A stretch of 53,380 bases of DNA, taken from IMG/VR virus record IMGVR_UViG_3300045988_159805, one strand, 5' to 3'. This DNA comes from a virus. The position numbers and the translations under genes are program-made. Shown here piece after piece: positions 7,493 through 53,083 of this stretch (positions are counted from its first letter, which is position 1; each line of letters starts with the position of its first letter). Under the pieces are notes generated by a model. That model saw only the letters and a list, made by a program, of their open reading frames with translations, had not been told where the DNA came from and did no database searches.

Positions 7493-7715
7493 TCCAGCAA
7501 CCTCCCTTTTCCGGAATACCCCCGCCCGTTCATTCTGCGATCTCCTGCACGGCATTGGGCTCCGGTCTTTTCATAGCCTGCTCCGTGGGGATTTTCACAC
7601 CCCCACGCTCTCCGGCTCACCTGCTCTCGTGCGTGCGTGTGACGATGTCAGTTTACGCCGCTTTTCTCGTTCTCCCGTGCGTGTGACGATGTCAACAAAC
7701 GTCAAAATAGGCTGT

Positions 7716-7937: not shown

Positions 7938-7968
7938 AAAAAGTTACCTCCTAGTCGGTTTCTCTCGG

Positions 7969-8316: not shown

Positions 8317-8341
8317 GAAATTCTCCGTTTCTTGAAAATTG

Positions 8342-8560: not shown

Positions 8561-8566
8561 GCTTTT

Positions 8567-10324: not shown

Positions 10325-10340
10325 CGGCTCTCACCGCCTC

Positions 10341-10607
10341 TCACAGACGCACCGGCACAGGCTGAATGCCGGCGGTGTGCTGTTCAGGCGGGACGGTGTG
10401 GACATCGTCCCCTACAGCCTCGCAGTTCAAAAACGCCGCAAATTTCTCTTGGTTAATGAGGTAGCGGCTGCCGATCTTCACCGTAAAGGCTGCACCCCGC
10501 CGACTTCTCGCCAGTTTCCGCACAGCGTAGGACGAAAGCCCGAACGCTTTTGCTGTGGTGTCAATGCTTTCCATGTGGGGAACGGTATATGTAAAATCTT
10601 TATTCAT
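10341..10607 (-). CDS. excisionase-family / MerR-like HTH DNA-binding protein
   Basis: ESIDTTAKAFGLSSYAVRKLARSRRGAAFTVKIGSRYLINQEKFAAFL is a typical excisionase-type HTH. Confidence 0.6.
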   Translation of the reverse strand: MNKDFTYTVPHMESIDTTAKAFGLSSYAVRKLARSRRGAAFTVKIGSRYLINQEKFAAFLNCEAVGDDVHTVPPEQHTAGIQPVPVRL

Positions 10608-10624
10608 TGATTCATTCCTTTCTC

Positions 10625-10889
10625 TTGAAAACCTGCTCCGGATATGCTATAATAGGAGCAGGCTATTTTTGAATAGTCTATTTGAAATTTAACGTGCGAA
10701 ATGCACGGGCGTGTGTCTGTTGGTAGCGGGTACACGCCTTTTTCTTTTGCCTTGGTGGGTGTCTTGTAGTGTGCATGGTTTTTCTCTCGCTTTCTGCCGG
10801 TCGTTCCGAAATAGTGGCAAACAGTGGTGTCTCTCTGTTCGCTCTTTGTTCGTTGGGTTTTGCTTTCCATTTTTGGAAAGCGTTTTTTT
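10625..10889 (+). ncRNA. candidate ~230-nt transcript antisense to the cro-like/xis-like leader
   Basis: TTGAAA(10625-10630)-17 nt-TATAAT(10648-10653). Canonical terminator GCTTTCCA-TTTT-TGGAAAGC plus T7 (10862-10889). No convincing ORF or RBS lies between them. Confidence 0.4.
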
Positions 10890-11067
10890 ATGCCTGCTCT
10901 GCTTTTAGCTGGTCGATGGCGGCAAGCACCTTTGCAGCGTCTGCCTCACTCAACGGCTTTCGCAGCTTTCGGCTGAAATTGCCGTCATTGATTCCCAGCT
11001 TTTCCGCAATCTGCCACAGGCAAACGCCGTTCTGCTTTGCAAGCTGTTTTACTTCTGTTCCGGTCAT
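10888..11067 (-). CDS. 59-aa Cro-like HTH regulator
   Basis: Not in the ORF track. RBS AGAGGTGA. Translation MTGTEVKQLAKQNGVCLWQIAEKLGINDGNFSRKLRKPLSEADAAKVLAAIDQLKAEQA. Confidence 0.6.
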   Translation of the reverse strand: MTGTEVKQLAKQNGVCLWQIAEKLGINDGNFSRKLRKPLSEADAAKVLAAIDQLKAEQA

Positions 11068-11097
11068 GGTATCACCTCTTTTCCTTGCAACAACAAT

Positions 11098-11192
11098 ATT
11101 TTAGCATAAATAAGTTGAAAAGTCAACCCATAGAATAAAATAAACCATGTAAATATTTTTTGGTTGACAACAACAACAGAAAATGATATAAT
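11098..11192. promoter_or_regulatory. back-to-back divergent promoters of the element's genetic switch
   Basis: Minus strand: TTGACT(11121-11126)-17-TAAAAT(11098-11103). Plus strand: TTGACA(11164-11169)-17-TATAAT(11187-11192). Confidence 0.6.
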
Positions 11193-11251
11193 GCAATAGA
11201 AGAAATAAAATTGCAAAATAGATGATTTTTGCAGATAAGGTGGTTTTTATT

Positions 11252-11974
11252 ATGGCATTGACGATTTTTGCAGAGCGAATGAAACAAGCGAGAACCGGAG
11301 CAGGCATGAAACAGAATGAACTTGCAAAAGCTGTTGGCGTTACCCCGGCGACGATCTCAGCCTATGAAAAAGCAAGCACAGACGGAAACGGAAAAAATCC
11401 GACACTGGAAAACGCACAGAAGATTGCAAAGGCTCTCGGTGTTTCTCTTGATTGGATTTGCGGAAACGGTCAGCCCACACCGGACGACGTGACAAGCTTT
11501 TCTTTGCAGGACTACTTGAAAAGTGTTGCGATTGCTTTGTATGAAATGAGTGTGAAAAGCGAATACGACAAAGAAAACGGACACGCAACAATATACATTG
11601 AGAACCCGGCAATTGCTCTTTTTGTTACAAAAGTGCAGCAGCTGCTTTTCGTGTATAGGAGCGGAACGCTTACGAGGGAAATGTACAATGATTGTATAAA
11701 AAGACTTGTCACCGGATTTAAGGGGCATTGTTTTGACTTCGGAAATCTTTTGACAGAGGGAGAGGCGTTGGACGCTGAAAGTTCTGTTGATGACATGGTC
11801 TCAAATTACCCCGAAGTTATAGGGACTAGCAGCATTGAAACAACACTTCTTGACCGCTATAGTTCAAACAATGTGGGTAGAGAAGTAAATTTATTGATAG
11901 AGCCGGAATTTTGGCAGCACTACGAAGAACAGGAGGCGAACAACCATGCCCAACATCACACAACGGAAGAATAA
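11252..11974 (+). CDS. XRE-family repressor with C-terminal domain
   Basis: Trimmed to MALTIFAERMKQARTGAGMKQNELAKAVGVTPATISAYEK (classic XRE HTH). Co-directional with, and overlapping, the integrase gene. Confidence 0.75.
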   Translation: MALTIFAERMKQARTGAGMKQNELAKAVGVTPATISAYEKASTDGNGKNPTLENAQKIAKALGVSLDWICGNGQPTPDDVTSFSLQDYLKSVAIALYEMSVKSEYDKENGHATIYIENPAIALFVTKVQQLLFVYRSGTLTREMYNDCIKRLVTGFKGHCFDFGNLLTEGEALDAESSVDDMVSNYPEVIGTSSIETTLLDRYSSNNVGREVNLLIEPEFWQHYEEQEANNHAQHHTTEE

Positions 11975-13217
11975 AGCCGGCGAGGTGATCTCCTACCGAA
12001 TTCGTGTCAGCCGCGGCTACGACAGCGAGGGAAACAAGCTGAAACCCCACGAAATGACGTGGAAACCCAGCCCCAGCATGACACCCCGACAGGCGGAAAA
12101 AGAGGCACAGCGGCAGGCGTTGCTATTTGAGGAGCAGTGCAAAAACGGGCTTGCTGGTGATGCAAGCCGCATCACCCTTGCGGAATTTGTCCCGGTATAT
12201 CTGGAGCAGAAACAGCAGACACTTTCGCCGATGGTTCTTGAAATGTATTGCCGGGTAATCGATCAAAAAATACTGCCTGCTCTGGGACATCACAAAATAC
12301 AAGATCTTCGCCCAGTCCATGTGCAAGCATTTATCCAGCAGCTGTGCAGCATAGACAAGCGAAACCGGGACGGCTCAGACAGCGAAGAAAAGCTTTCGGC
12401 TGCCAGTGTCAAGCGGTATCTTACAGTGTTGCAGTCTATGTTAAAACTTGCCGTAAAGCGGCGGATTATCAGCGAGAACCCAGCACGGGCGGAGCTGCTG
12501 GACATACCGAAAGCCACTGCCCCGAAGATCGATATTTTCACCAAACAAGAGGCAGCTGTCATGCTGGAGGCACTGGAGCAGGAGCCGCTGCAATTTCAAG
12601 TGCTGATACAGCTTGCTATTATTACCGGTGCAAGACGTGGGGAGCTGGTGGCACTGCGATTTTCTGATATTGACCGGAAAACTCGCAAAATCACCATTGA
12701 ACGGGCTGCGATCAAGCGAACAGGTCAGCCGCCGGAGATCAAACCGCCGAAAGATTATGAAGTACGGAGCGTAACGGTTACGCCGGCGTGTATTGAACTT
12801 GTGGACAAACTGGAGCAGGAGAAACGGGCACAGCGGCGGGCTCTGGGCAGCTACTGGAACGAGGGCGGCTGGCTGTTTACACAGGAAAACGGGGACATGA
12901 TGAACCCGCAAACGCCCACAAAGCAATTTTCAAAGTTTCTGAAACGGCATGACTTCCCGCACCGGAAATTTCACGCACTGCGGCACACTTCGGCGACGCT
13001 GCTTTTATACGGCGGTGTTAGTCTGAAGCAGGTGCAGGGACGGCTCGGACATGGGGATATCGAAACCACAAACAAGTACCTGCATTGCTTGCAGGAGGCA
13101 GACGAGGAGGCGGCTTGCGTGCTGCAAAGTATGCTGACAGTCAGCCGAAAGCCCAAACCGGAGCAGGCACAGACAAAGGCAGCGGCAGAGCCAAAGCAGG
13201 CGAAAGCCGGGGCATAA
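11946..13217 (+). CDS. int: tyrosine site-specific integrase
   Basis: GGAGG RBS. N-terminal arm-binding-like MPNITQRKNKAGEVISYRIRV. C-terminal HALRHTSATLLLYGGVSLKQVQGRLGHGDIETTNKYLH. Confidence 0.9.
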   Translation: MPNITQRKNKAGEVISYRIRVSRGYDSEGNKLKPHEMTWKPSPSMTPRQAEKEAQRQALLFEEQCKNGLAGDASRITLAEFVPVYLEQKQQTLSPMVLEMYCRVIDQKILPALGHHKIQDLRPVHVQAFIQQLCSIDKRNRDGSDSEEKLSAASVKRYLTVLQSMLKLAVKRRIISENPARAELLDIPKATAPKIDIFTKQEAAVMLEALEQEPLQFQVLIQLAIITGARRGELVALRFSDIDRKTRKITIERAAIKRTGQPPEIKPPKDYEVRSVTVTPACIELVDKLEQEKRAQRRALGSYWNEGGWLFTQENGDMMNPQTPTKQFSKFLKRHDFPHRKFHALRHTSATLLLYGGVSLKQVQGRLGHGDIETTNKYLHCLQEADEEAACVLQSMLTVSRKPKPEQAQTKAAAEPKQAKAGA

Positions 13218-13220
13218 CAA

Positions 13221-13267
13221 AAGCCGCCGCAGGGTGCATGATACACCTTGCAGCGGCTTTCTTTTTG
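13221..13267 (+). terminator. intrinsic terminator after the integrase gene
   Basis: Imperfect ~16-bp stem AAGCCGCCGCAGGGTG/CACCTTGCAGCGGCTT followed by TTTCTTTTT. Confidence 0.5.
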
Positions 13268-13397
13268 TCGGATTTTGTTGGACTTTGCAGGGACTTTTCG
13301 AGGGCTTAGTGTCCTGATAGTGCCCTAAGCGTATTTCCCACCCTAAAACCAAAAAGCACGCAACCCCGGAAACTTCCCGAAATTGCGTGCAAATTCC

Positions 13398-13442
13398 TGG
13401 AGCTGTTAACCAGATTCGAACTGGTGACCTCTTCCTTACCAA
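13398..13442. repeat. att copy 2: shared junction between the satellite-like element and the prophage
   Basis: 45/45 identical to 4112-4156 and 42353-42397. It carries the same post-core AAAG as copy 1, where the tRNA copy has AAGG. Confidence 0.85.
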
Positions 13443-40790: not shown

Positions 40791-41195
40791 ATGAAAGAAA
40801 CAATCTGCACAGTCGTCGGAGTTGTCGGCAGCTTTGTCGCATGGCTGTTCGGCGGATGGGACACAGCACTGGCAACGCTGCTGATCTTTATGGCGGTAGA
40901 CTATGTGACAGGGCTGATTGTCGCAGCTGCCGGAAAATCGCCGAAGGGCAAGCTGTCCAGCAAGATCGGCTGGAGAGGACTTGCCAAAAAGTGTGTTGTG
41001 CTGCTGCTGGTTCTGGTAGCGGCACAGCTGGACGTGGTTCTCGGCATGGACTATGTGCGTGCAGGCGTGTGTGTTGCGTTTCTGTGCAATGAGGTGATTT
41101 CCATTTTGGAAAACGCCGGCTTGATGGGCGTACCGCTGCCGGCGGCACTGAAAAACGCTGTGGAATTACTGCAATCGAAAGGAAAAGGTGAATGA
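40791..41195 (+). CDS. holin (phage_holin_4 / TcdE-like)
   Basis: FGGWDTALATLLIFMAVDYVTGLIVAA ... GWRGLAKKCVVLLLVLV. Confidence 0.75.
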   Translation: MKETICTVVGVVGSFVAWLFGGWDTALATLLIFMAVDYVTGLIVAAAGKSPKGKLSSKIGWRGLAKKCVVLLLVLVAAQLDVVLGMDYVRAGVCVAFLCNEVISILENAGLMGVPLPAALKNAVELLQSKGKGE

Positions 41196-42082
41196 GTATG
41201 AAAGGAATCGATGTATCGAAGCATCAAGGCAATGTGAACTGGTCGCATGTCAAGGCAGACGGTGTGAAGTTTGCCATTATCCGTGCGGGCTACGGCAAGC
41301 AGGCATCGCAGAAAGACACGCAGTTTGAAGCCAACTACACCGGCTGCAAGTCACAGGGCATCCCCTGCGGTGCATACTGGTACAGCTACGCTGCCACGCC
41401 GGCAGAGGCAAAGCAAGAAGCTGCTGTTTGCCTGAGCGTTATCAAGGGCAAGACATTCGAGTACCCCGTGTATTTTGACATCGAGGAGCCAAGCGTGCTT
41501 GTAAAGGGCAAGGCAGCCTGCACCGCCATTGCAAAGGCATTTTTGGAAGCCGTAGAACAGGCAGGCTATTTTGTGGGAATTTACTCCAGCAAAGTACATC
41601 TGGAAAACTGCATCACAGAAGAGTTGCGGGCACGGTATGCTGTCTGGGTGGCACACTACGGCGTGGATAAGACCACCTACCACGGACAGTACGGCATCTG
41701 GCAGAAGTCCAGCACAGGCAAGGTGAGCGGCATTCGGGGCAATGTGGACATGAACGAGTGCTACACGGACTACCCGGCAGCCATCCGCAAGAAAGGGCTG
41801 AACGGGTTCAAGGCTGTCCAGACCGCAGCAACAGCGAAGCCGGCACAGGCGAAGTCCTGGAAGAAAGGTCAGGCGGTGCACATCGGCAGCAATGTACCAC
41901 TGTTCGCCAACGAAACTACTACCACACCCGCTGCCCGACTGACTGCCGGAACGTACTACATCTACGACGGCGTGCCTTGTAAGCTGGGACGGTATCGTGT
42001 TACTACTACGGCGGCTTCCTGCGGTAAGACACCAGTCGGGAAGTATGTCACAGGGTATGTGTCGTGGGATAATTTCAAGTAA
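41192..42082 (+). CDS. endolysin: GH25 muramidase plus C-terminal binding domain
   Basis: GIDVSKHQGNVNWSHVKADGVKFAIIRAGYG ... YWYSYA ... DIE. Confidence 0.8.
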   Translation: MSMKGIDVSKHQGNVNWSHVKADGVKFAIIRAGYGKQASQKDTQFEANYTGCKSQGIPCGAYWYSYAATPAEAKQEAAVCLSVIKGKTFEYPVYFDIEEPSVLVKGKAACTAIAKAFLEAVEQAGYFVGIYSSKVHLENCITEELRARYAVWVAHYGVDKTTYHGQYGIWQKSSTGKVSGIRGNVDMNECYTDYPAAIRKKGLNGFKAVQTAATAKPAQAKSWKKGQAVHIGSNVPLFANETTTTPAARLTAGTYYIYDGVPCKLGRYRVTTTAASCGKTPVGKYVTGYVSWDNFK

Positions 42083-42103
42083 CACAGAAATGATAATCTG
42101 ATG

Positions 42104-42238
42104 CAAATAACGAAAAAACCGGCAGTACAAAACAGAAAATCTTCTGCGCAAATAACGAAAAAACCGGCAGTACAAAACAGAAGATCTTCTGCGCAAATAA
42201 CGAAAAAACCGGCAGTACAAAACAGGAAACCTCCTGCT
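42104..42238. repeat. 3 x 45-bp tandem repeat at the prophage right end
   Basis: Units begin at 42104, 42149 and 42194 (CAAATAACGAAAAAACCGGCAGTACAAAACAGnAnnnCTnCTGCG). Only the last unit is completed into a hairpin. Confidence 0.8.
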
Positions 42239-42255: not shown

Positions 42256-42352
42256 GTACCGAAATTGTCGTACTAAGTGTCGTACTACTGTTTTTTCATA
42301 AAACCAAAAAGCACGCAGTCCCGGCATACCGCCGGAGCTACGTGCAAATTCT

Positions 42353-42428
<76 letters not shown>

Positions 42429-42640
42429 ATTTGATTTTGTTTGTTTTTGTCGTTTTGGGCGACTCAACGTATATTATTATAGCACAGATATGGGGACTTG
42501 TCAACGCTTTTTTTGACTTCCGAAAAAAGAAAAATCATGCGGATTGAAACTTTACTTTCTTTCTCGAATCATTGCAAAACAGCATAAAGTCAGAACTATA
42601 ATATATCAAAAACAAATCCGGCATTTTCTCCTTATGCCGC

Positions 42641-42676
42641 AAAAAAACGCCGCCGGGCGGTGATGCCCGATGGCGT
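42641..42676 (-). terminator. terminator after the VanY-like gene
   Basis: GC-rich hairpin ACGCC...GGCGT followed on the minus strand by T7. Confidence 0.5.
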
Positions 42677-42693
42677 TTCCTGGTTTATCCGAT

Positions 42694-43800
42694 TCATTCG
42701 CAGGTGACAATATATCCGCTGATGTTGTCGCCGGATGCGGTATAGGTCTTGCCGGGGATGGTCACATCCACATCGTTTGTGCCGCCGATGCCCACATAGA
42801 ATACCTTATACTGCTTTCCGTCCGCTGTGATCTCCAGCGGATTTGCCGGGGTGTAGCTGTGGATCTTGTCCACATACTCTTCCAGGCACAGCTTGTGTTC
42901 TGTCATGTAAACAGCGTGGGGAACGCCCACATAGCGGAAGGTATAGCTGCGGCTGTCCTCGCCGGTCTTTTCTTCCTTGCCGTCCGGATAGCGCACCACA
43001 AAGCCGTACTCTGCGGCGTGTTCAGCGATCCAGCTGTACTGCGGATATTTCTCCGCATTATAATAGTCCGAAGTGCCGTCTCCGAAGTTGATCTTCAGAT
43101 TAAAGCTTCTGCCGCTGTGATAGTCGGATGTGCCGCCTTTGAAGTCGGTGCTGCCGTCTGCATACCGTGCATCCTGGTCTGCCTTGTCCCGATAGCCGCT
43201 GAATACCTGCATTCCGCTCAGTCCGGTCTCCTTTTCAAATGCCGCCATCATCTCGTTCAGATGCTGGATCGTCTCAGCGTCCAGCTGGACTTCCATATCG
43301 CTGACGCTGTAGGAACTGTTCCGGTTCTCATAGACACTTTTGAGTTTCGGGTCGCCAGTGGGGAAATCGTAGGAGTGATCTTTGTTAATAAGGATCAGAT
43401 CGCCCTTGTTCACGCCCTTGGCAGCCAGTGTGATCTGCTTGCCGTCGGTCAGACTGCTTTCCTCTGCCTGCGTTGTCTTTGTGGTGTCCGTAGCCACATC
43501 CGGTGCGTCGGTCTGGGTATCCTTTTCGCTGTTTTCAACCTTTTCGGCAGAAGTAGTCGCTGTTGCCACCGGTGTGCTGCCGGACTCCTCCGGGGACTTC
43601 CGGCGCTGGCAGCTGTGGAAACACAGTGCGCCGATCAGCAGGACGATCAGCAGAAACGGTACGCCCACCGCAGCGATGCGGTCCAGCCGGAGCTTGCGTT
43701 TTCTGGCGTGGCTGCCTCCTTTTCTGGCTGCTTTTTTATCCACATCCGGTTTCGGGGATGGTTCTTTTGCATGACTGATCGGTTTTTTCGGTTCGCTCAT
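42694..43800 (-). CDS. VanY / M15-family D-alanyl-D-alanine carboxypeptidase-like protein, membrane-anchored
   Basis: TM helix VGVPFLLIVLLIGALCF. Motifs SGYRDKADQ, SDYHSGRSFN and YTFRYVGVPHA are VanY-type. Confidence 0.7.
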   Translation of the reverse strand: MSEPKKPISHAKEPSPKPDVDKKAARKGGSHARKRKLRLDRIAAVGVPFLLIVLLIGALCFHSCQRRKSPEESGSTPVATATTSAEKVENSEKDTQTDAPDVATDTTKTTQAEESSLTDGKQITLAAKGVNKGDLILINKDHSYDFPTGDPKLKSVYENRNSSYSVSDMEVQLDAETIQHLNEMMAAFEKETGLSGMQVFSGYRDKADQDARYADGSTDFKGGTSDYHSGRSFNLKINFGDGTSDYYNAEKYPQYSWIAEHAAEYGFVVRYPDGKEEKTGEDSRSYTFRYVGVPHAVYMTEHKLCLEEYVDKIHSYTPANPLEITADGKQYKVFYVGIGGTNDVDVTIPGKTYTASGDNISGYIVTCE

Positions 43801-44070
43801 GACAGATGTTCCTTTCTTTGCAGAATTGCCGCATCAGCGCCTGCTGTGCATTTTCTGCGCACAATAAGCCGGCGGTCTGTCCAAATCCGAAATCCATTCC
43901 GGAGCGGATGCGGCAGTGCTTTCATTATACCATATTCCCCGAAGATTTTCAAGTCAAATTTTGTCGTATCCGGAAAAGCGGTTTCCCGGCGCAGCGCAGG
44001 GGCGTGCCTTTCAGACACTCCGGCGGGAGAGCCGCAGCAGGGGAGTCGTTTTTTGCATCCGCATTTTCAC

Positions 44071-44099
44071 TTGACAAAACCAGGAAAGCGTGGTATACT
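44071..44099 (+). promoter_or_regulatory. promoter of tRNA-Leu
   Basis: TTGACA(44071-44076)-17-TATACT(44094-44099). Confidence 0.65.
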
Positions 44100-44129
44100 T
44101 AGTTGTACGTTCTTTCCCACAGATATTTT

Positions 44130-44212
44130 GCGGATGTGGTGAAATTGGCAGACACGATAGATTTAGGTTCTATTGCTCCGGCGTGCAGGTTCAAGTCCTG
44201 TCATCCGCACCA
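44130..44212 (+). tRNA. tRNA-Leu (anticodon TAG), long variable arm, CCA encoded
   Basis: Acceptor GCGGATG/CATCCGC. Anticodon stem ATAGA/TCTAT with loop TTTAGGT. Confidence 0.85.
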
Positions 44213-44217
44213 GAACA

Positions 44218-44267
44218 AAACGCTCAGAAATGACGCAGCTGCGTTGTTTCTGAGCGTTTCTTTTTTT
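44218..44267 (+). terminator. intrinsic terminator after tRNA-Leu
   Basis: Stem AAACGCTCAGAAA/TTTCTGAGCGTTT followed by a T-run. Confidence 0.75.
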
Positions 44268-44663
44268 GTGCCGGGGGCTGTCCTTTATTTGTCCTTTATG
44301 CAGGCAGTTTGTCCGGATTTGTTGAAATTAAGCAGAAAAAACGGAAAATTTTTTCTATAAAGCGTTCTGAATTAGGCGGCAAAGTATTGCTGTTTTATAC
44401 CGAGTTTTTCACATTCTTCATCTTGTCTTATATTTATGGAGCATATCCATAGCATACTGAGAGGACTCTTAAAAACCTAGTATTTCTCCTTTGTGTAATT
44501 CATTGTATATTCAAAGTATGATACTTCAGTTGTGCAGTCTTATGCAGTTAATTTATTTATAGTATATAACACATTATTTTAGTTTTACATTTGCTTTGAG
44601 CAGATTGCATAAATTTTAAGGTGACGATTCTACATAAGCTGTTAGAAAATGTAAATATATGTA

Positions 44664-44692
44664 TTGACATTTCTAGGGCAATGTGGTATACT
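44664..44692 (+). promoter_or_regulatory. promoter of the island operon
   Basis: TTGACA(44664-44669)-17-TGgTATACT(44684-44692). Confidence 0.65.
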
Positions 44693-44813
44693 TAATTTGA
44701 TAAATAAAGTTGGAATTATATTGGACTTTTGTATAAAGTGCATAAAATTAAAACTGTAATCGTTAGCTTGTTTATACTATTTGAATTAAAATAATGTGAG
44801 AGGAATGATTAAA

Positions 44814-47375
44814 ATGATAGTGTACAAAATAGCTGCAATTCCAGATATCACTCTAAGCAAATATCAGGCCTATGCAGAATCAGGCGTTGAGGGCATGATA
44901 AAAACACAACTGCAATTCATTCGAATGGTGCATAGAATTATTGCGTTGGACCGTATTCATGTACACTATATTTTTGATTATGATCCAGAAAAAAGTTTAG
45001 GCAATCGTTTGAGCATTTATATTGCGTTTTCAAAAGAAAATGACACCGCATCTGTCATTGAAGAAAAGCTAAAGAAGATTGTACTTTCATCAAATATTTC
45101 GAAGTACTTCTTCTTTCAGGAAGTCTCTGATGATTTAATTCCATCTAAAGAATACGTGTATCGGTCTGTTCTGTATAAAAAAGAGCGCTCTTTAGACGTA
45201 AATGTTGGAGAACAGACGCAAAAATTTTATGTTGTTCCAAATTGGGAAATTAACGAGGAAGCTCGTTTGTATAACTTGATTACATTAATGGCATCTCTGA
45301 ATGAGCGTTGTTGCTATTGCGTTGATTTTGGAGTTCCGCTTAATATCGTAGAAGATGTACATAAAAGTTTTGAAAAGCCTTTGAGCTTTTTGAGGAACTA
45401 TTCAACTCAAGATGGTCCTGCACTTAGTGATGCTAAAAAAAGTCAAAAAAATCGAAGAGATCCTAATGTTGATGAAGTTATAAAACAATATGAGGACTGG
45501 ATAAAAAAAGTTGATACTTCGTTAGTATATCGCTGTAGGATACAATCACTTTCGGACAGCAGTTCTACTAGTATAATCCTTTTGAATGCGGTTATAACGG
45601 AATCAATTGAAAGTGGAAATGCAGCTACAAAATTAGAAAAAGGAAGTTTTACGCCTTTCTCAAATTGGAATAGCTATCCAGAAGGGTATCATCTTGGAAA
45701 TGCACCAGTTTCTTTACAGGACTGGACAACTACATTTACAGTTGAAGAACTTTGTGCATTTACGTGCTTACCTGTTTTGTATGATGGAGAAACGGTTGAG
45801 ATACCAAAAGAAACCGCAATGGTGGCTGAAACTAGTGGCATCTATTTAGGCAATGACAATAATCTTCATGAGATAATGATCCCGGAAAAGATGTTAGTGA
45901 AACATATGTTCGTTTGCGGCGTGCCTGGATCAGGAAAAACCAACACAATGCTGCATTTGGCAAACAGCCTGTGGAAGAAAAAAATACCTTTTCTTGTTTT
46001 AGAGCCAGCTAAGAAAGAGTATCGGGAATTATCGTTATTTCAAATTCCGGAATTACTGATTTTTTCTCCTTCGGCAAATACAAATTTTCCGTTAGAAATC
46101 AATCCCTTTGAGTTTCCTAAGGGATTGACCTTGTCAGAACATATTGAAAGTTTGTGTAAAGTATTTGAAGGCGCTTTTCCTATGCCGTCGCCTTCTCCCA
46201 AAATACTGAGTACTTCTATTCAGGCTGTTTATGAAAAGCATGGATGGAGTTATAAAGATGTAAACACAGGTACTAAAGAATACCCTACATTATCTGAATT
46301 GTATAAGCAATTCGAAGAAGAAATGTCCAAGACATCATATGATGGGGAAATGAAGGGCAATGTGCAGGCAGTTCTTCAAGTGCGAATAGGAAGTCTGCTG
46401 GAACGTGAACGCAAAGAAATTTTTGATGTAAAAAAATCTGTGATTGACCCGGAAGAATGGCTCACAAAACCAATTATTATTGAGTTGGAGTCTTTAGGTG
46501 AGGGCCCTGCAAATTTCGTAACACTTTTATTGTGTACATTGATAAGAGAAACGTTAAAGGCAGATCCTTTGAAGGAAAAGGAAAAGAAGATACGTCACGT
46601 TATTTTTATCGAAGAAGCACATAATTTAATTGCTCAAAAGGCACAGGTCGATGCAGAAGATTCTAACCCCAAAATAGCGGCTACTGCATTTATTGTTAAA
46701 ATGCTTGCAGAAGTACGTGCATTAAGAGAAGGAATTATTATTGCAGATCAGCTGCCAACGGCTATGGCGCCGGAAGTTATAAAAAACACGAATATTAAAT
46801 TGGTCCATCGTTTAACATCGGGCGATGACAGAGAATTGGTTGGCAGCACAATGTCGGCTAGTCCGTTGCAAATGGAGAATATGGCTACATATCTCCCTGG
46901 ACAAGCGTTATTTAGCTACGAAAAGTTGTTAAAACCATTTGAAATGCGAGTTTGCACGGTAGAAGAACATGGAGAAAAAACTCCAAATGACAAAGAATTG
47001 TTTGAAATCATGCAGAAAAAACCTGGATTTAGCAACTTGCAGAAAAGAAGAGTCAATAATGCGTTTGATGCTTTGAAAAAAGAAACAGATCGATTATATA
47101 AAGAAGAAACAGATATGATTGAGGAACTGTTTCGAAGTGAAGAAAATAAAAGAATATCCAGGTCAGTTGCAAAGCCGTATTTAGAATCTTGTTCGAATAT
47201 TTTTGTTGAAATCATGAAAAAGCAAAATGAAATCGATATAGAATATCAAAAACTATTTAGTGAAATTGATTTCTTAGATCAAGGAATATTTACGGATTAT
47301 TATGTCGTAAATAGAAGTATTGGACAGAGATTTAAGAAGGCGTATGGTGCGTTTTGTTCTAGATTAAACGGCTAA
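44814..47375 (+). CDS. HerA/FtsK-superfamily (DUF87-like) ATPase with a large unassigned N-terminal domain
   Basis: Start chosen by AGAGGA spacing. Walker A FVCGVPGSGKTNT. Walker B HVIFIEEAHNL. Downstream GIIIADQLPTAMAPEVIKNTNIKLVHRL is typical of HerA-like ATPases. The first ~370 aa have no motif I recognise. Confidence 0.7.
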   Translation: MIVYKIAAIPDITLSKYQAYAESGVEGMIKTQLQFIRMVHRIIALDRIHVHYIFDYDPEKSLGNRLSIYIAFSKENDTASVIEEKLKKIVLSSNISKYFFFQEVSDDLIPSKEYVYRSVLYKKERSLDVNVGEQTQKFYVVPNWEINEEARLYNLITLMASLNERCCYCVDFGVPLNIVEDVHKSFEKPLSFLRNYSTQDGPALSDAKKSQKNRRDPNVDEVIKQYEDWIKKVDTSLVYRCRIQSLSDSSSTSIILLNAVITESIESGNAATKLEKGSFTPFSNWNSYPEGYHLGNAPVSLQDWTTTFTVEELCAFTCLPVLYDGETVEIPKETAMVAETSGIYLGNDNNLHEIMIPEKMLVKHMFVCGVPGSGKTNTMLHLANSLWKKKIPFLVLEPAKKEYRELSLFQIPELLIFSPSANTNFPLEINPFEFPKGLTLSEHIESLCKVFEGAFPMPSPSPKILSTSIQAVYEKHGWSYKDVNTGTKEYPTLSELYKQFEEEMSKTSYDGEMKGNVQAVLQVRIGSLLERERKEIFDVKKSVIDPEEWLTKPIIIELESLGEGPANFVTLLLCTLIRETLKADPLKEKEKKIRHVIFIEEAHNLIAQKAQVDAEDSNPKIAATAFIVKMLAEVRALREGIIIADQLPTAMAPEVIKNTNIKLVHRLTSGDDRELVGSTMSASPLQMENMATYLPGQALFSYEKLLKPFEMRVCTVEEHGEKTPNDKELFEIMQKKPGFSNLQKRRVNNAFDALKKETDRLYKEETDMIEELFRSEENKRISRSVAKPYLESCSNIFVEIMKKQNEIDIEYQKLFSEIDFLDQGIFTDYYVVNRSIGQRFKKAYGAFCSRLNG

Positions 47376-47394
47376 AGAGAAAGGAATGATAGAT

Positions 47395-47877
47395 ATGGCT
47401 GGAAATAAAAGCTTAGAAACCAGAAAAAACAAGGTGAGTGAAATCGGCAAAAATATTGAAAAAAAGTCAGAAAGACTTTCAGAATTGCAGGAGGCTAAAG
47501 AGGCTGCAAGAGAATGGAGAATGCAAATAGAAAACAATGAAAATTTAGACGAAGAAGAAAGAAAGCAGGCAAGTGAAGTCTCAAACGAAAGATATGAAGC
47601 AATTTCAAAAGAAGCCTCAGAAGTTTCTAGTGAGGTAGGAGAAGACTTAAAAGAATTAGAAGATCTTAGAAATGAAACAAATGAATCGCTGGAAGCAGCT
47701 CAAAATGCGAAAAGTTCTGAAGATGATCTGGTAAGAACTTGCTCTGAACATGGGATTATTGTTCCAAAATCTAAGAGCTTAGACAGCAATATAAGAGGAA
47801 ATGAAAATCTGTTAAATGAAATAATTGAAAAAATGGGAAATGCAGAAGATATTGCAACTAAATTGGGTACTTTGTGA
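47395..47877 (+). CDS. acidic coiled-coil protein
   Basis: Glu/Lys-rich heptad-like sequence. The start is 47386 or 47395. Confidence 0.55.
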   Translation: MAGNKSLETRKNKVSEIGKNIEKKSERLSELQEAKEAAREWRMQIENNENLDEEERKQASEVSNERYEAISKEASEVSSEVGEDLKELEDLRNETNESLEAAQNAKSSEDDLVRTCSEHGIIVPKSKSLDSNIRGNENLLNEIIEKMGNAEDIATKLGTL

Positions 47878-47895
47878 AATGAATCTTTTTCTGCA

Positions 47896-48558
47896 ATGAC
47901 GTTCACAGAGAGAATGTCTTCTATGTTAAACCCGGATGTTTTATCTGCTGCAATAAAAGAACAGCAAAGCGCAGAAGATACAGGTTCTTATGGACGTTTG
48001 AAAAGAGATCAGAACATATGGAATCCGGATGGAAAGATCTCATCTGACCAGAACTCGCACACTTTGGGGGAAAAGACATTTCAAAGAGCATATTCAGATA
48101 TAAAAGTTGCAAAAGGAAATGCGACTGAGGAAGCGGTTTGTTATTCCCTAAAGGATCAGTTCTCTTCAATTGAAACACAGAGAAAAATAGATCTGGAAAA
48201 AAACACCTATACCAAATCGGATATCATAGCAACCCATGCAAATCAAAATATTCAGATCGGGGATATCTCTATAAAAGAAGGAGAGTCTATGGGTGTTGAA
48301 GTTAAGTGCGGAGAAGCGGCGTATCTTTCATCTCAAATATCGCACATTGATAAGCAATTAAGTGGATTTGATGTTTATGAAAGACAAGACGAATCTGTAA
48401 AGTTTCACAAGGTCGTTATGGTAACAGCAGACTACTATCAAATGTCAGATTCTTCAAAGGGACATCTGAATGATGTTGTGAAAAGTCACAATGCGTGTAT
48501 TCATGTTCTTCCATTTTTTGCAAATGACATAACGCAGACGATGGCGAGAATGGAATAA
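47896..48558 (+). CDS. hypothetical protein, possible PD-(D/E)xK nuclease fold
   Basis: Candidate core ...KSDIIATH...(27 aa)...GVEVKCG (D...ExK). The RBS is weak and the start is uncertain. Confidence 0.45.
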   Translation: MTFTERMSSMLNPDVLSAAIKEQQSAEDTGSYGRLKRDQNIWNPDGKISSDQNSHTLGEKTFQRAYSDIKVAKGNATEEAVCYSLKDQFSSIETQRKIDLEKNTYTKSDIIATHANQNIQIGDISIKEGESMGVEVKCGEAAYLSSQISHIDKQLSGFDVYERQDESVKFHKVVMVTADYYQMSDSSKGHLNDVVKSHNACIHVLPFFANDITQTMARME

Positions 48559-48590
48559 TAAAAATAATCAATAAGGAGGCTTTTTTATTT

Positions 48591-50384
48591 ATGGGATTAT
48601 TAGATTTAGCAGGAAAAGCAATTGGTGGTGCGGTGAATTTCACAGCAAGTGTAGCAAAAGAAGCGTATGATGCCTCAGTGGAGGATAAAATCGCACAAGA
48701 AACAAGTACCTCTGTAGATTCAGTTACAAATTCAATTGTGCAAATGCGATCCAATTGGACGGCTGCTGCAAATGACGTGAAAAAAAGAAAAGCAGAGGAA
48801 CTTTATCAGGAAGGCTTAAAAAAAGCCACGCATCAAATAACTGAATTTATTGGAACGACAGGCGTCAGAACAAAAGCATTTAATCTATATTATAGATTCT
48901 TAACCAATAATGCAGAACTTAGCGAATTAGCAAAATATGTGGATGGAATTTATAATGCTGTCCTGGACAAAGAAGAATCGTCTTACTTAAAAAAAGCACA
49001 GGAAAGTTCAGAATATAAAACTATATTTAACGAAGTACAAAAATCTTGGGTCAACGAAATAAAAAATGTGATTACGGAAAATCTAAAGGGAAACGACGTA
49101 TTATGCCACACTGACAAACAAGACAAAAGAATACCTTTTGTGGGAATATCAATGTTCTTAATAGATGGTTTCTATCTTTTCTTATTGCTGAAAAAAATCA
49201 CAAACGATTTTAAGTACGATGATATGATGGAAATAGTCTCCACATATTGCAAACGAAATCTGTATCTACTGAATGCGCTTTCAGAAAATGAATATGGAGA
49301 TTTTAATATTAACATAGGAGATAAACTTCTGGATGATGGACACACCTATGCTGCTATGGCAAAAGATGCAGTTATAGAAGCAAGACAGCATTTATCTGAC
49401 AATGAAACCGGATTTTTTGAAGGAATGAAAAAGTACTTGATTCCTTCACTTATAGAAAACACGAGTGTAAACCTTTGGCACTATGCAATGCAAAAACCGT
49501 TTGATCAAAAAAAGTTTAACGATGCAGTCGAAAATCGAAATTTCTTTACAGCAACGGCAGGAAATGATTTTGAAGTTGTTTTGGCGGAACTATATGTAAA
49601 AAACCAATTGGGTGGAAGTGAGCTTGTTCTTCAAAACCTAGATGAGATTTTGAAAGAGGCATCAGTTTCTAATCCCGGATATGCAAGAAGCCTATGCTCT
49701 TTTCTTGCATGGATGGAATGCTATGATCTTGAGTATGAAGTTTTGAAACGAACTGTGGCAAATAAAATCCAACTGTCAGAAGAAATGCAAAAGCGTTTAT
49801 CGTTCCTGGCTGACGGCGGAAAAACAGCGGCAATTAAAATATATCATGTGGATGATCCATCTGCATTTTGCTTTGACACACATTCACTTGAATGGGGTAG
49901 TGCTGAATTTGAAATGCTGTTTCGTAAGCTAAAAGCAAGCAACACAAAATTGGATTATGCACTTGTTATAAAAGGGTGGCATAAACCTTTTCCCATTCAG
50001 TATGGAAAGAAATTTCATATTGAAGCGTTAGAGCGAGAATTTGAAAATCTTTTGTCAGATTTTAGCGGAGAGGTTCTTTTAGAAAAAAAATCTGCCCATG
50101 CTCTGAATGTAAACAACATGAATTATGATACGTCATATGTTTTTCATTTTACTTCTGAACGAAATCGTGGTGTAAATGTTCTGTTTGAATGCGAGAAATT
50201 CGGACGTAATTTACAACTGAATATTCTAGTTACATTTTTACCAGACAGTGATATGAGTTATGATGATATGTTGCAGTATGCACTGTCAGCAAAAGACAGC
50301 GTTTATGTAAAAAGTTTCCTGGAATCAATTTTGCAGGCAATTGATTCTTCATTGACCGCAAATTCTGCATCGATTTATGACTAA
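48591..50384 (+). CDS. 597-aa protein of unknown function, paralogue of 51152-52978
   Basis: AAGGAGG RBS. Alignable by eye with the last gene, e.g. FLAWMECYDLEYEVLKR versus ALAWMELYDIELMVLKK, and FHFTSERNRGVNVLFECEKFGRNLQLNILV versus FHFISERNRCISMLFHAEKFGKNLNITILT. Confidence 0.65.
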   Translation: MGLLDLAGKAIGGAVNFTASVAKEAYDASVEDKIAQETSTSVDSVTNSIVQMRSNWTAAANDVKKRKAEELYQEGLKKATHQITEFIGTTGVRTKAFNLYYRFLTNNAELSELAKYVDGIYNAVLDKEESSYLKKAQESSEYKTIFNEVQKSWVNEIKNVITENLKGNDVLCHTDKQDKRIPFVGISMFLIDGFYLFLLLKKITNDFKYDDMMEIVSTYCKRNLYLLNALSENEYGDFNINIGDKLLDDGHTYAAMAKDAVIEARQHLSDNETGFFEGMKKYLIPSLIENTSVNLWHYAMQKPFDQKKFNDAVENRNFFTATAGNDFEVVLAELYVKNQLGGSELVLQNLDEILKEASVSNPGYARSLCSFLAWMECYDLEYEVLKRTVANKIQLSEEMQKRLSFLADGGKTAAIKIYHVDDPSAFCFDTHSLEWGSAEFEMLFRKLKASNTKLDYALVIKGWHKPFPIQYGKKFHIEALEREFENLLSDFSGEVLLEKKSAHALNVNNMNYDTSYVFHFTSERNRGVNVLFECEKFGRNLQLNILVTFLPDSDMSYDDMLQYALSAKDSVYVKSFLESILQAIDSSLTANSASIYD

Positions 50385-50402
50385 TAAGAAGGTGATGTTA
50401 AA

Positions 50403-51134
50403 ATGAATGAAGAAAGAACACTGACAAAAGAACAGCAGCAGGCATTTGAAGAGATGCTTCAAGAAAAAACCTATTGCGGTGATGCGTTTTCAGCTTTTCG
50501 CTTGTTCACTAATTATTTGAAGGGAACAAATGGGTTCCGAAAAGATCCAGACAAGGCGTTTGAATATTTGAAAATCTCATCAGACTTAGGCTATCCACAC
50601 GCAATTAACCTTCTGAAATTGTTGTATAGTGGAAATGACTTGTATGGCTTAAAAATTGAACGTGATTTAAGAAAACGAATAGAGTGCCTTGAAAAATTAA
50701 GTGTTGCAGATCAACTCTTTGATTTTTCGACTGTGACGGAAGAAGAGCGAAATGAATTTTACCAGATGGAGTGGAATGCTCTGGCTGAACTAGGGCGGTT
50801 ATATATACTTGATTCTACTTTATATGAGGAAGATAACTATAAAGGTTATTGCCTTTCATTGTATGTAGCAGGACAGAAAGGAACACCAGAGTCGTTGTGT
50901 ATGCTGGGCTACTATTTTGATTGTTACAGACCTCCACAGTATGTACCATCGAATACCTTATTAAAAAAACGTGGGAATCTGGGAACTGCATTATATTACT
51001 ATGAGTGCGCAATCAATACAGATAATTCTAAGTATGCTAATCTTGCTTTAGAGCAGTATAATCGATTGGCAGAACAAATTAATGTGAGCGAAGGCAGAAC
51101 CGAAGAAAATATGATTCCATATTACAGAAGATAA
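50403..51134 (+). CDS. Sel1-like (SLR/TPR-type) repeat protein
   Basis: GFRKDPDKAFEYLKISSDLGYPHAINLLKLLYSG and further degenerate SLR units. Confidence 0.55.
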   Translation: MNEERTLTKEQQQAFEEMLQEKTYCGDAFSAFRLFTNYLKGTNGFRKDPDKAFEYLKISSDLGYPHAINLLKLLYSGNDLYGLKIERDLRKRIECLEKLSVADQLFDFSTVTEEERNEFYQMEWNALAELGRLYILDSTLYEEDNYKGYCLSLYVAGQKGTPESLCMLGYYFDCYRPPQYVPSNTLLKKRGNLGTALYYYECAINTDNSKYANLALEQYNRLAEQINVSEGRTEENMIPYYRR

Positions 51135-51151: not shown

Positions 51152-52978
51152 ATGCTGGCATTTATTTTAATTGTAGGTGTATTAATTGCAATATACTTTA
51201 TTGTGAATAGTCAAAAAAGAAAAAAAGAGGAAGAACAGCGCCGATTAGAAAATGAACGAATAGCAAGAGAACAGCAAGAACAGGAAGCAAAACGTCTTGA
51301 GGCAGAGCGCATAGCAAAAGAAAAAAAGGAATTTGCCGAGGCAAAACATAAAGAATATGCGGATGTTCTAAGTGAACTTTATGATATGGGAATGAAAGAT
51401 GAAAATACATTTATCTCAACGGATGAACCGGCGTATAAAAAATTTATTTCTTGTCGGGAAAGTGCAATGCAACAGAAGGAAACAATGCAAATTTGGGGTG
51501 AGGAATACAAAAAATTTATTACAACGATCGACGATGATATAAAAAGTGAGATTTCAAGTATCGCTGCCCATTATCAAAGAATGCTTTTATCAGTACGCAT
51601 TGAATGGATCACTAGATATTTGAAAATCGTAAAGCTTGTTGTAAACACAAACGATTATGATGATACAATTCAAAAATTAAAAGAAACAGCAAAAACACTA
51701 AATCTTTTTTTGGAAAGTACATATTATATCGATCAACCATTCAATGACGAGCGTAATAGCTATGAATACGGCGTTTTTCATTTTTTGGAAGATAGTAGCG
51801 ATGAGGAAGTACGTCCAGAAGATTTATCAGCAGAAATATTAAGTTCAGATATGGATAAAGCTGAAGAACATTTCTCACAATTATATGAAATCGGAAAGGA
51901 AAAAGGTGTCAATTTCCAGATATACAAATCTTTGGCTGAATATATAACAGACGTTGACTATAGAAATAGTGCTATAGCGATGTGGTGCTTTGCTGCTAAT
52001 AAACCATTTGATGTTTCCAAATTTGAAAAGGCTTGTAAAATTTCTTCGTGGTATATAAGCTATGATGAAATTCAGTCCTTAGAGGTAATGATTGTACGGA
52101 TATACAACTGGAAATCTATTGGCGGCGCAAATGTTGTCAAGGAATATAGTCGAGATATTTTGAATTGGGTAGAGGAAACTGCGCAGTATTTCTCAGACCA
52201 AAAAACTGGGGAAAAGTATGGTTCATTAGTTTTCTACCATTTTGTATCTGCACTTGCATGGATGGAATTGTATGATATTGAATTGATGGTTTTGAAAAAA
52301 CTTGTAGATCTAAAAGTACAGCTCTGGGAAGATGCACAGGAACGTTTGAAATTTTTATCTTCTGGTGGTACAGCAAACGTACAGATTTATACGCCTGTAG
52401 AAAATGTCTTTTCGTTTGATACAAGTGCTGCTGAATGGAAGGATAATGAGATTGATGTATTCTTTAGAAAGATAAAAATGAAAAACATTCCATTGGAATA
52501 TTCTCTCGTTCGGAAAAAATGGACAAAAACATATCCGTTACAAACTGGACAGGAATATAGTGCAGATGCTCTGTATGCAGAATTTAGCAAGATGGTAGAC
52601 GATTTTGATGGAGAAGTAACGCTGACTCGAGAAGATGCAGTAGCTTTGAACACAAAAAATGTAAGATATTCTGATGCAATGATCTTTCATTTTATTTCCG
52701 AGAGAAATCGTTGTATTTCAATGCTGTTTCACGCAGAGAAATTTGGAAAAAATCTAAACATTACAATATTGACACTATTCACACCAGAAAAGAATGTTCC
52801 GGTTGAAGATCTTGAACGTTATGCCATTGCGATTAAAAATAATGTATACGCAGAGAGTTTTCAGGAATCAATTTTGGAATCTTTAGATAGGATTTTGAAA
52901 GTACAAACAGAAGCATATGAAGATACAACAACTACAAATGAAAATGCAGAAGTTGATTTCAGTGGATTTTTCGATTAA
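51152..52978 (+). CDS. 608-aa membrane-anchored coiled-coil protein, paralogue of 48591-50384
   Basis: N-terminal TM helix MLAFILIVGVLIAIYFIV, then an EEQRRLENERIAREQQEQEAKRLEAERIAKEKKE coiled coil. The C-terminal ~350 aa are homologous to the fourth gene. Confidence 0.65.
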   Translation: MLAFILIVGVLIAIYFIVNSQKRKKEEEQRRLENERIAREQQEQEAKRLEAERIAKEKKEFAEAKHKEYADVLSELYDMGMKDENTFISTDEPAYKKFISCRESAMQQKETMQIWGEEYKKFITTIDDDIKSEISSIAAHYQRMLLSVRIEWITRYLKIVKLVVNTNDYDDTIQKLKETAKTLNLFLESTYYIDQPFNDERNSYEYGVFHFLEDSSDEEVRPEDLSAEILSSDMDKAEEHFSQLYEIGKEKGVNFQIYKSLAEYITDVDYRNSAIAMWCFAANKPFDVSKFEKACKISSWYISYDEIQSLEVMIVRIYNWKSIGGANVVKEYSRDILNWVEETAQYFSDQKTGEKYGSLVFYHFVSALAWMELYDIELMVLKKLVDLKVQLWEDAQERLKFLSSGGTANVQIYTPVENVFSFDTSAAEWKDNEIDVFFRKIKMKNIPLEYSLVRKKWTKTYPLQTGQEYSADALYAEFSKMVDDFDGEVTLTREDAVALNTKNVRYSDAMIFHFISERNRCISMLFHAEKFGKNLNITILTLFTPEKNVPVEDLERYAIAIKNNVYAESFQESILESLDRILKVQTEAYEDTTTTNENAEVDFSGFFD

Positions 52979-53053: not shown

Positions 53054-53083
53054 ATGAGCAGGAGAAAATCCTGCTCATTTTTT
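53054..53083 (+). terminator. intrinsic terminator of the island operon
   Basis: Stem ATGAGCAGGA/TCCTGCTCAT followed by T5. Confidence 0.75.

Follow-up and report, generated by a model that had tools for sequence, protein, structure and literature searches.

An FtsK/HerA-superfamily ATPase with a predicted VirB4-like architecture as candidate motor of a toxin or protein export system

The virus record IMGVR_UViG_3300045988_159805 of IMG/VR, a stretch of 53,380 nucleotides (nt) called here, at its whole length, the window, carries an operon of six same-strand genes, the first of which, gene A, encodes an ATPase of 853 amino acids (aa) belonging to the FtsK/HerA superfamily. From its modelled structure the protein is predicted to have the two-domain architecture of VirB4 followed by a variable helical tail, with neither a HAS barrel nor any sign of an enzymatic effector domain. 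We propose that A might power a system for exporting toxins or proteins that has yet to be described, a reading that we place close to the point of balance, slightly on the side of doubt.

The longest open reading frame (ORF) in the frame of gene A runs from 44796 to 47375 (+), with a GTG start and 859 aa. An ATG at 44814 gives the 853-aa product, and it is the likely start since 25 homologues (alignment A1) begin at the same residue. The gene and the parts of its product are the following:

44814..47375, + strand: gene A, 853-aa ATPase of VirB4-like architecture, FtsK/HerA superfamily
44814..45833, + strand: N-terminal alpha/beta domain of A (residues 1-340), predicted VirB4-NTD-like fold (AlphaFold2, Foldseek)
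45840..46958, + strand: RecA-like ATPase core of A (residues ~343-715; Pfam DUF87, Foldseek)
46989..47372, + strand: helical tail of A (residues ~726-853), variable in sequence (AlphaFold2 secondary structure, alignment)

Both P-loop motifs named in a preliminary description of this DNA are present in the ORF: Walker A, GVPGSGKT, corresponds to residues 369-376 (nt 45918-45941) and Walker B, VIFIEEAH, to residues 596-603 (nt 46599-46622), the starts first given, 45917 and 46598, being each one base early. The catalytic residues G369, G372, G374, K375, T376, E600 and E601 are invariant in two alignments of 26 and 61 family members. The sole Pfam match in A is DUF87 ('Helicase HerA, central domain'), which covers residues 358-576 with an E-value of 1.4e-10, above its cutoff, and is found also in 26 of 26 relatives; FtsK_SpoIIIE is matched in 14 of 26 members of the family. 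As had been described, the large N-terminal region holds no placeable motif: residues 1-345 scanned alone gave zero Pfam matches even at E ≤ 10, and this region and the tail are recognised by none of the sequence libraries (Pfam, NCBIfam, PHROGs, PADLOC). The C-terminal ~130 aa, described earlier as a helical tail, are indeed helical in the AlphaFold2 model, with helices at residues 737-774, 783-815, 823-835 and 838-852. Searches of PDB sequences with A alone and with family profiles of the full-length protein and of the N-domain produced weak P-loop matches at most, and no VirB4.

The resemblance to VirB4 comes from the predicted structure. The AlphaFold2 model of residues 1-345, built on an 87-sequence alignment, has a pLDDT of 89.1 and a pTM of 0.88. 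When compared with the PDB by Foldseek, its matches at E ≤ 0.02 were without exception (13 of 13) TrwK/VirB4 chains of the R388 type IV secretion system (T4SS), with E-values from 1e-4 to 1.7e-2, probabilities of 0.77-1.0 and TMq of 0.34-0.46. The ferredoxin-like chlorite dismutase/HemQ and Cas6 ranked next, at E > 0.1, and no HerA chain was among the 50 PDB matches listed. The full-length model (pLDDT 89.8) has TrwK 7o42_A as its best PDB match, with an E-value of 1.9e-14 over 880 columns and a TMq of 0.38, the other matches extending over only 400-710 columns. Those of 405-496 columns (SIR2-HerA, DndH-C and the VirB4 C-domain) fit well, with a root-mean-square deviation (rmsd) of 4-7 Å, and correspond to the ATPase core. 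Superposed on this core, the C-domain of Thermoanaerobacter VirB4 (4ag5) reaches TMt 0.74-0.76 and rmsd 4.3-4.8 Å, and DndH-C (7es4) TMt 0.72. The core matches HerA (4d2i, 8wod, 8sub) at E ~1e-13 and SIR2-HerA, DUF4297-HerA and TdpA at E 1e-13 to 1e-10; in longer alignments of A to Sulfolobus HerA and to some TdpA chains the rmsd rises to 15-17 Å.

These comparisons bear on the preliminary description, which had taken A for a HerA-like ATPase with a fused sensor or effector domain. Its assignment to the P-loop ATPases of the FtsK/HerA superfamily stands, whereas the fusion is not supported: the significant PDB matches of a confident N-domain model all fall on the TrwK/VirB4 N-terminal domain, and this VirB4-like fold together with the lack of a HerA-defence context speaks against a HerA carrying a sensor or effector. 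The N-domain is not the barrel of HerA either, neither Pfam nor Foldseek having given a HAS match. The end-to-end alignment with VirB4 that had been envisaged there is obtained as a fold, over the 880 columns of TrwK, and fails with VirB4 sequence models.

A database search found 1708 proteins that match A at E ≤ 1e-3. The best 120 are mostly full-length (~850-870 aa) and come from Lachnospiraceae, Oscillospiraceae, Eubacterium and Olsenella metagenome-assembled genomes (MAGs), those that bear a name being called 'DUF87' or 'ATP-binding'. The N-domain is conserved as well as the ATPase, with 33 invariant columns in 87 sequences. Given the number of matches, the mostly full-length character of the best 120 and the conserved N-domain, gene A is no chance ORF. 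Searched against 1.84 billion representative proteins at E ≤ 1e-3, a profile of the N-domain retrieved no more than 232 clusters. Those listed proteins that are near full length (~790-1520 aa) have the N-domain at or near the N-terminus, and the shorter matches look like fragments; judged by position and length, none of the listed matches has it C-terminally or in a full-length protein too short for an ATPase. The A family is unannotated ('hypothetical', 'DUF87', 'ATP-binding') and occurs mainly in anaerobic gut and rumen Bacillota, with some Actinomycetota.

The gene context of the family was studied in 93 related loci (L001-L009, 80 species genomes and 4 IMG/VR contigs), and neighbouring ORFs were clustered over 94 neighbourhoods, these loci and the window. 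Gene calls in the related loci are simple ORFs of >= 50-60 aa and could overlook small immunity genes. The Bacillota hosts, mostly from gut or rumen, include Ruminococcus, Blautia, Faecalibacterium, Butyrivibrio, Dorea, Catenibacterium and Erysipelotrichaceae, and the actinomycetotal ones Olsenella, Atopobiaceae and Gardnerella vaginalis. Across the loci A is accompanied by a ~160-aa helical protein (B in the window), and in the close subfamily also by a ~600-aa protein (C); the association of B and C with A extends over different genera, with tblastn identities of 31-40% in subfamily (i). In this subfamily, to which the window belongs, A has 850-880 aa and the order is A, B (~160 aa), a variable slot and C (~600 aa, sometimes duplicated), the slot being often occupied by a standalone HExxH protein of 158-242 aa, a ~80-aa ORF and an Lgt-like membrane protein. 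In subfamily (ii) an A of 970-1010 aa is followed by a 163-aa helical protein, a protein of 470-660 aa, an ORF of ~72-84 aa and a ~1180-aa FtsK/SpoIIIE ATPase, and the operon ends with three small proteins, one of them with a transmembrane (TM) helix. Subfamily (iii), with an A of ~1330 aa, has the partners of subfamily (ii) in a different order.

It is in these sister loci that a toxin signature appears. Proteins of 'cluster 0' occur in 54 of the 93 loci, and their long forms (470-800 aa, subfamilies (ii) and (iii)) share a helical N-terminus without signal peptide and end in at least 18 different C-terminal types. In Pfam these C-termini match Gln_amidase (a papain-fold toxin; 7 members, best E 1.9e-16), Endonuclea_NS_2 (3.6e-24), WHH, Colicin-DNase, ADP-ribosyltransferase (ADPrib_exo_Tox) and several metallopeptidases. 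The type of toxin and the small ORF immediately downstream of it vary together, cluster 6 accompanying HExxH, cluster 23 Gln_amidase and cluster 47 type 2. Such toxin C-termini with a co-varying downstream ORF are the polymorphic toxin/immunity signature as defined in PMC3482391, where a VirB4-type route is not mentioned. The 163-aa helical protein of cluster 2 shows homology to the N-termini of the toxins (hhalign 94%, E 1.4e-7), and in 34 loci there is in addition an FtsK-type ATPase, its best matches in NCBIfam being two proteins of type VII secretion systems (T7SS), EssC (1.6e-29) and EccC (1.2e-26), both far below cutoffs. The window's own subfamily is connected to these toxins through the standalone HExxH proteins, which align to the C-terminal domain of the long toxins (e.g. 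residues 401-626 in L051) and keep the same downstream cluster-6 ORF as the HExxH long toxins; in the window, the slot filled by these toxin-domain proteins in related loci is held by a 220-aa orphan.

One complete sister operon can be described from Gardnerella vaginalis 1-004-1 (L085 9977-20634), and similar ones are found in L043, L049, L050, L056, L074 and L093, all carriers being cultured strains. Its eight genes encode a VirB4-like ATPase (~980 aa), a 163-aa helical protein, a polymorphic toxin (a Gln-deamidase in L085), a 71-aa ORF, an EssC-like FtsK ATPase of 1187 aa, a 118-aa TM protein and two proteins of 151 and 361 aa. Other arrangements were noticed among the loci. In an Olsenella MAG (L007 5703-14840) A-B-C forms part of a prophage, flanked on one side by phage structural genes and a resolvase and on the other by an MmeI-type restriction-modification gene; its variable slot is occupied by another B-like coiled-coil gene, a longer one (291 aa). 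L038, L040, L046 and L061-L063 have, upstream of A, an AAA_2 ATPase of the ClpB/Cdc48 type (~608 aa, cluster 13), and a small DUF2752 protein with two TM helices (cluster 16) follows C where C comes directly after A, in L035, L037, L042, L052, L058 and L067.

Relatives are present on only 4 of 2.9 million viral contigs (IMG/VR) and in 2 phage records, and tblastn of A against 72,556 plasmids gave 58 matching records, with only 6 on conjugative plasmids. The 30 listed plasmid matches are hypothetical, DUF87, ATP-binding or unannotated proteins, mostly from actinomycetes, and match in the ATPase core only, with one exception. This is Priestia megaterium pN447-3.1 (L094), which has a full-length A relative of 963 aa (27% identity, 82% coverage) between a 140-aa and a 1135-aa protein (L094 8261-15186), all three named 'hypothetical protein'; the 1135-aa one has no NCBIfam match.

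In the window the six genes, A, B of 163 aa, the 220-aa orphan, C1 of 597 aa, a Sel1 protein and C2 of 608 aa, are separated by gaps of 10-32 nt. The features of the operon other than gene A are:

44130..44259, + strand: tRNA-Leu(TAG) at 44130-44212 and terminator-like hairpin at 44218-44259, upstream boundary of the low-GC island (ARAGORN, terminator scan)
44664..44692, + strand: promoter-like TTGACA-17-TATACT with TG extension, ~120 nt upstream of the A start codon
47386..47877, + strand: gene B, 163-aa acidic helical protein, start 10 nt past the A stop
47896..48558, + strand: 220-aa orphan in the 'cargo' position, which is variable; none of the libraries searched gave a match
48591..50384, + strand: C1, 597 aa, of the ~600-aa partner family, no N-terminal TM helix
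50403..51134, + strand: 243-aa Sel1-repeat protein (Pfam Sel1, E 2.5e-06; 28.3 bits, just under the 30.7-bit cutoff)
51152..52978, + strand: C2, 608 aa, membrane-anchored, with N-terminal TM helix, K/R/E-rich coiled coil and a conserved ~330-aa C-terminal domain
53054..53078, + strand: terminator-like hairpin then T-run, operon end (terminator scan)

Scanned against Pfam, NCBIfam, PHROGs and PADLOC, the five neighbours of A gave only Sel1 and coiled-coil noise, the latter being all that B matches. Gene B is found directly downstream of A in L002-L005 with 31-34% identity (tblastn); its family (cluster 4) is present in 26 loci and the equivalent 163-aa cluster 2 in 40. The 220-aa orphan has a family of only 8 database clusters, in which three residues, D109, E135 and K137, are invariant in 4 homologues; from these three residues only, it may be a PD-(D/E)xK-type nuclease. 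Sel1/TPR proteins are a recurrent accessory, clusters 20 and 5 occurring in 5 and 16 related loci.

The two C proteins are 36% identical over 336 aa, and C1 is 33-35% identical to the ~600-aa gene of L002-L005 (tblastn). C1 matched no library and no PDB sequence, and a C-family profile likewise found nothing useful among PDB sequences; none of the 26 homologues of C2 (alignment A5) has a Pfam domain, and no relationship of the C family to the FtsK-like and other families of the sister loci was detected by hhalign. Most C proteins have one or two N-terminal TM helices (TM scan). The longest contigs of the C homologues P0281, P0286, P0293 and P0294 are as long as those of the A homologues P0019, P0084, P0102 and P0010, respectively, which is consistent with shared contigs; the sharing was confirmed for P0293/P0102 in L007. 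Leucine-rich repeat proteins that fell within the C cluster were rejected as clustering artefacts. The C-family C-termini present a conserved acidic stretch followed by a hydrophobic/acidic tail (…YDD…FFD, FVE or IIE), at 50340-50381 and 52930-52975 of the window and about columns 740-765 of alignment A5; this stretch could be a recognition signal for the ATPase.

A further feature of C is seen outside the window. An Lgt-like gene (PF01790, prolipoprotein diacylglyceryl transferase; L002 14099-16824) is restricted to loci with a two-TM C, namely those of cluster 8 (L002, L012, L014, L016-L018, L020, L023, L025 and L026). In them the TM helices of C flank a Cys-rich lipobox-like loop (FISCS, IVSCG, FLSCG). 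The strict C.C..C pattern is found in 4 of 10 distinct C proteins of Lgt loci and in 0 of 25 from loci without the gene, and by eye a looser Cys-rich lipobox-like segment is visible in all 10. The pairing suggests, as far as sequences can tell, a dedicated lipidation of C. The C proteins of the window have neither the two TM helices nor the Cys-rich loop.

The operon is a horizontally acquired low-GC unit inserted beside the tRNA-Leu gene, outside the neighbouring prophage. The GC content falls from ~50% to ~35% just past the tRNA-Leu and hairpin and stays at ~35% to 52999, the last position profiled. The promoter-like site at 44664..44692 fits 11 of 12 consensus positions and is tied best of 37 sites in the region; since the region's total of promoter-like sites is not above the shuffled expectation, it counts as a consensus match only. 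Upstream of the operon the prophage carries a holin at 40791 and a GH25 endolysin at 41192-42082, and is followed by tRNA-Thr at 42353-42428 (−), a VanY-type carboxypeptidase at 42694-43800 (−) and the tRNA-Leu. Contig L001 is 99.7% identical to the window over 42300-51112, and this segment is joined there directly to window 948-4156, so that L001 carries the same operon locus without the prophage and is ~38 kb shorter than the window at this place. The operon is therefore not cargo of the prophage, a reading ruled out by this otherwise 99.7% identical contig without the 38-kb insert. A 490-aa (+) ORF at 42670-44142 was discarded as the shadow of the VanY gene, which encodes a 368-aa D-Ala-D-Ala carboxypeptidase (NCBIfam vanY, 2.6e-34) and is present also in L001. 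The insert itself is marked by a 57-bp direct repeat in three copies (100% and 98% identical), at 4100-4156, 13386-13442 and 42341-42397, which overlaps the 3' end of tRNA-Thr; L001 joins both flanks directly without the ~38 kb between. The window seems to carry two tandem elements at tRNA-Thr, one of ~9 kb (4157-13442) and the ~29-kb prophage (13443-42340). A 45-bp tandem repeat (3.0 copies, 94% matches) at 42103-42237 lies just downstream of the GH25 endolysin, at the end of the prophage next to the att repeat.

For the proposed export system the following sequence of events can be envisaged. We infer that A oligomerises, as VirB4 and HerA do, and that its VirB4-like N-domain would dock on the cytoplasmic part of the membrane-anchored C, the bulk of which is probably cytoplasmic because a K/R-rich stretch follows the TM helix. 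ATP hydrolysis by A would then drive the export or delivery of the small helical proteins together with the cargo or toxins that they escort, the 220-aa protein having the putative role of a toxin in the window; the model for this step is the export of Lap/LXG by T7SSb and of effectors by T4SS. More tentatively still, the whole A family could be an unrecognised secretion or delivery system of Gram-positive gut anaerobes with a VirB4-shaped motor, paired in its larger versions with an EssC-like ATPase; we think this possible and rather less probable than the export role of A itself. In such a system polymorphic toxins lacking a signal peptide would be escorted by the ~160-aa helical proteins and would pass through, or act at, the membrane-anchored ~600-aa proteins, and the window would represent its minimal, single-ATPase version.

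Several points weigh against the proposal. The resemblance to VirB4 is structural only, with TM-scores of 0.35-0.46 and no sequence or profile support; values below 0.5 mean that the subdomains are placed differently from VirB4 or that the similarity is remote. No polytopic channel protein is conserved in the related loci. The window operon has no recognisable toxin domain, small immunity-like ORF or EssC-like ATPase, so its subfamily would be linked to toxin export via homology and synteny with other loci, and B itself shows in hhalign only a weak similarity to the N-termini of the toxins (55%) and to cluster 2 (28%). The matches of A to HerA and mad8 in PADLOC, modest as they are, and the position of the islands by integrases, in a prophage and by an MmeI-type restriction-modification gene fit an anti-phage role equally. 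Export by the A family is, throughout, a prediction.

A defence of HerA type is accordingly the main rival to the export reading, and in our judgement an unlikely one, though with a real share of the probability. A hexamer of A would scaffold or activate the putative 220-aa nuclease, C and the toxins as intracellular effectors of abortive infection, the small ORFs being antitoxins. The structural matches of the core to SIR2-HerA, DUF4297-HerA and TdpA agree with this, as do PADLOC mad8 (2.6e-16) and HerA (1.3e-10); the operon is a low-GC island at a tRNA, and relatives lie by integrases or recombinases, in the Olsenella prophage and on the 4 IMG/VR contigs. Defence systems too can have variable effector domains on a conserved scaffold. 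However, the HAS barrel is absent (no Pfam match at E ≤ 1 in A or at E ≤ 0.01 in 26 relatives), no NurA, SIR2 or DUF4297 partner was found by Pfam or PADLOC among the window neighbours, which match nothing in PADLOC, and the NCBIfam model HerA_antiphage reaches 18.7 bits where its cutoff is 800. The polymorphic-toxin signature (Gln_amidase, WHH and Colicin-DNase, with a co-varying downstream ORF per type), the toxin N-terminal regions, the EssC-like second ATPase and the membrane-anchored partners speak against it as well, and so does the rarity of relatives on viral contigs and in phage records.

It is also conceivable, and to our mind improbable, that A is a translocase of DNA or nucleoprotein at the membrane, CedB/CedD- or FtsK-like, serving uptake, exclusion or chromosome and plasmid handling and unrelated to toxin export. 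The best NCBIfam match of A is the DNA-translocating ATPase CedD (1.9e-19, residues 342-709), and the DndH-C and HerA structural matches, the FtsK_SpoIIIE matches in the family and the membrane anchor of C would suit such a function; yet the CedD score is 69.7 bits, the cutoff being 600, and its match, like those of mad8 and DndH (4.2e-4), is confined to the ATPase core. The library scans recognised no DNA-binding domain, nuclease, pilin or channel gene, no mad, dnd or ced partners were detected among the window neighbours, and the conserved context is dominated by protein toxins and immunity genes.

Gram-positive conjugation systems pair VirB4 with an FtsK-like coupling protein. That A is the remnant, on an integrative element, of a conjugative VirB4 that has diverged or degenerated, with the sister FtsK-like ATPase as coupling protein, is nonetheless very improbable: only VirB4 shares the fold end to end, integrases or recombinases are frequent neighbours (clusters 7 and 12) and L002 has a truncated TraG/T4CP gene nearby, but TIGR00929 (VirB4_CagE), PF03135 (CagE_TrbE_VirB) and AAA_10 match neither A nor its 26 relatives, the 30 listed plasmid matches include no annotated conjugation ATPase and 6 of 58 records are conjugative, relaxase, VirB6, VirB8/TcpC and cell-wall hydrolase are missing from the conserved operon in the 94 neighbourhoods, and the same compact operon is kept, along with toxin cassettes, in different phyla.

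Antagonism among gut Bacillota is currently ascribed mainly to T7SSb/LXG toxins and bacteriocins. If the export reading is true, there would be a second ATPase-driven route of antagonism, offering new toxins, immunity proteins and export signals to study, and the two-domain architecture of VirB4 would have been recruited outside conjugation. The family with this VirB4-like motor is spread through Ruminococcus, Blautia, Faecalibacterium, Lachnospiraceae, Erysipelotrichaceae, Olsenella and Gardnerella. If defence is the true function, the operon would stand for defence by a member of the HerA superfamily whose N-domain and effectors are new. Under either reading, all the parts now bear in genome annotation the names 'hypothetical', 'DUF87' or 'ATP-binding'.

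The comparison with known systems starts with TrwK/VirB4 of R388 (7o42, 7o43, 8rtb, 8rtd), the only solved protein that matches both halves of A. It has a similar length (~800-850 aa) and the same order of N-terminal alpha/beta domain and ATPase, the correspondence being at fold level only. Unlike TrwK/VirB4, A has an extra helical tail of ~125 aa and is accompanied by a helical protein of 160 aa and a single-pass membrane protein of ~600 aa; no conserved cluster with VirB3, relaxase, VirB6, VirB8/TcpC, coupling protein or cell-wall hydrolase exists in the 94 neighbourhoods. With the HerA systems (SIR2-HerA/Nezha, DUF4297-HerA, TdpAB and archaeal HerA-NurA) A has in common the ATPase superfamily and DUF87, a structural similarity (E 1e-14 to 1e-10, ~400-500 columns) and the location on mobile islands. 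It differs from them in the VirB4-like fold of its N-terminal 340 aa and in that the curated HerA models remain far below cutoff.

The likeness to T7SSb concerns the sister loci and not the window: an EssC/EccC-like FtsK ATPase, helical proteins homologous to toxin N-termini and immunity-like ORFs follow the same genetic logic as the export of LXG toxins. However, no WXG100 or LXG was matched by Pfam among 46 proteins of the cluster-0 toxin cluster scanned, no EsaA/EssA/EssB-like genes were recognised in the related loci, and the EssC-like protein differs from EssC in having one recognisable ATPase domain, no TM helix and 102 bits against a 778-bit cutoff. A VirB4-like ATPase is part of no described T7SS, and the window's subfamily, unlike T7SSb, has no EssC-like gene at all.

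Among viral proteins, the BFVD models of Bacillus phage G gp156 and gp155, S5MSQ0 of phage JL and A7KUX5 are full-length structural matches to A (G3MBM2, G3MBM1, S5MSQ0 and A7KUX5; 802-913 aa, E 1e-14 to 1e-21, ~880-1000 columns). Three of the E-values are 9.7e-22, 4.2e-20 and 6.9e-16, and the identities to A are 12-14%. A VirB4-like two-domain architecture thus exists also in large Bacillus phages. The JL protein S5MSQ0 is misnamed 'Lipid A export ... Msb'. No description of the A family or of its operon was found in the freely searchable full-text literature, subscription-only literature lying outside the search; the closest published text concerns Type III-A CoCoNuT loci to which VirB4-like and EssC-like ATPases are joined (PMC11090510). 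The architecture of A is, in sum, a known one, and the family and the type of operon are new, standing by sequence and context outside both VirB4 and HerA.

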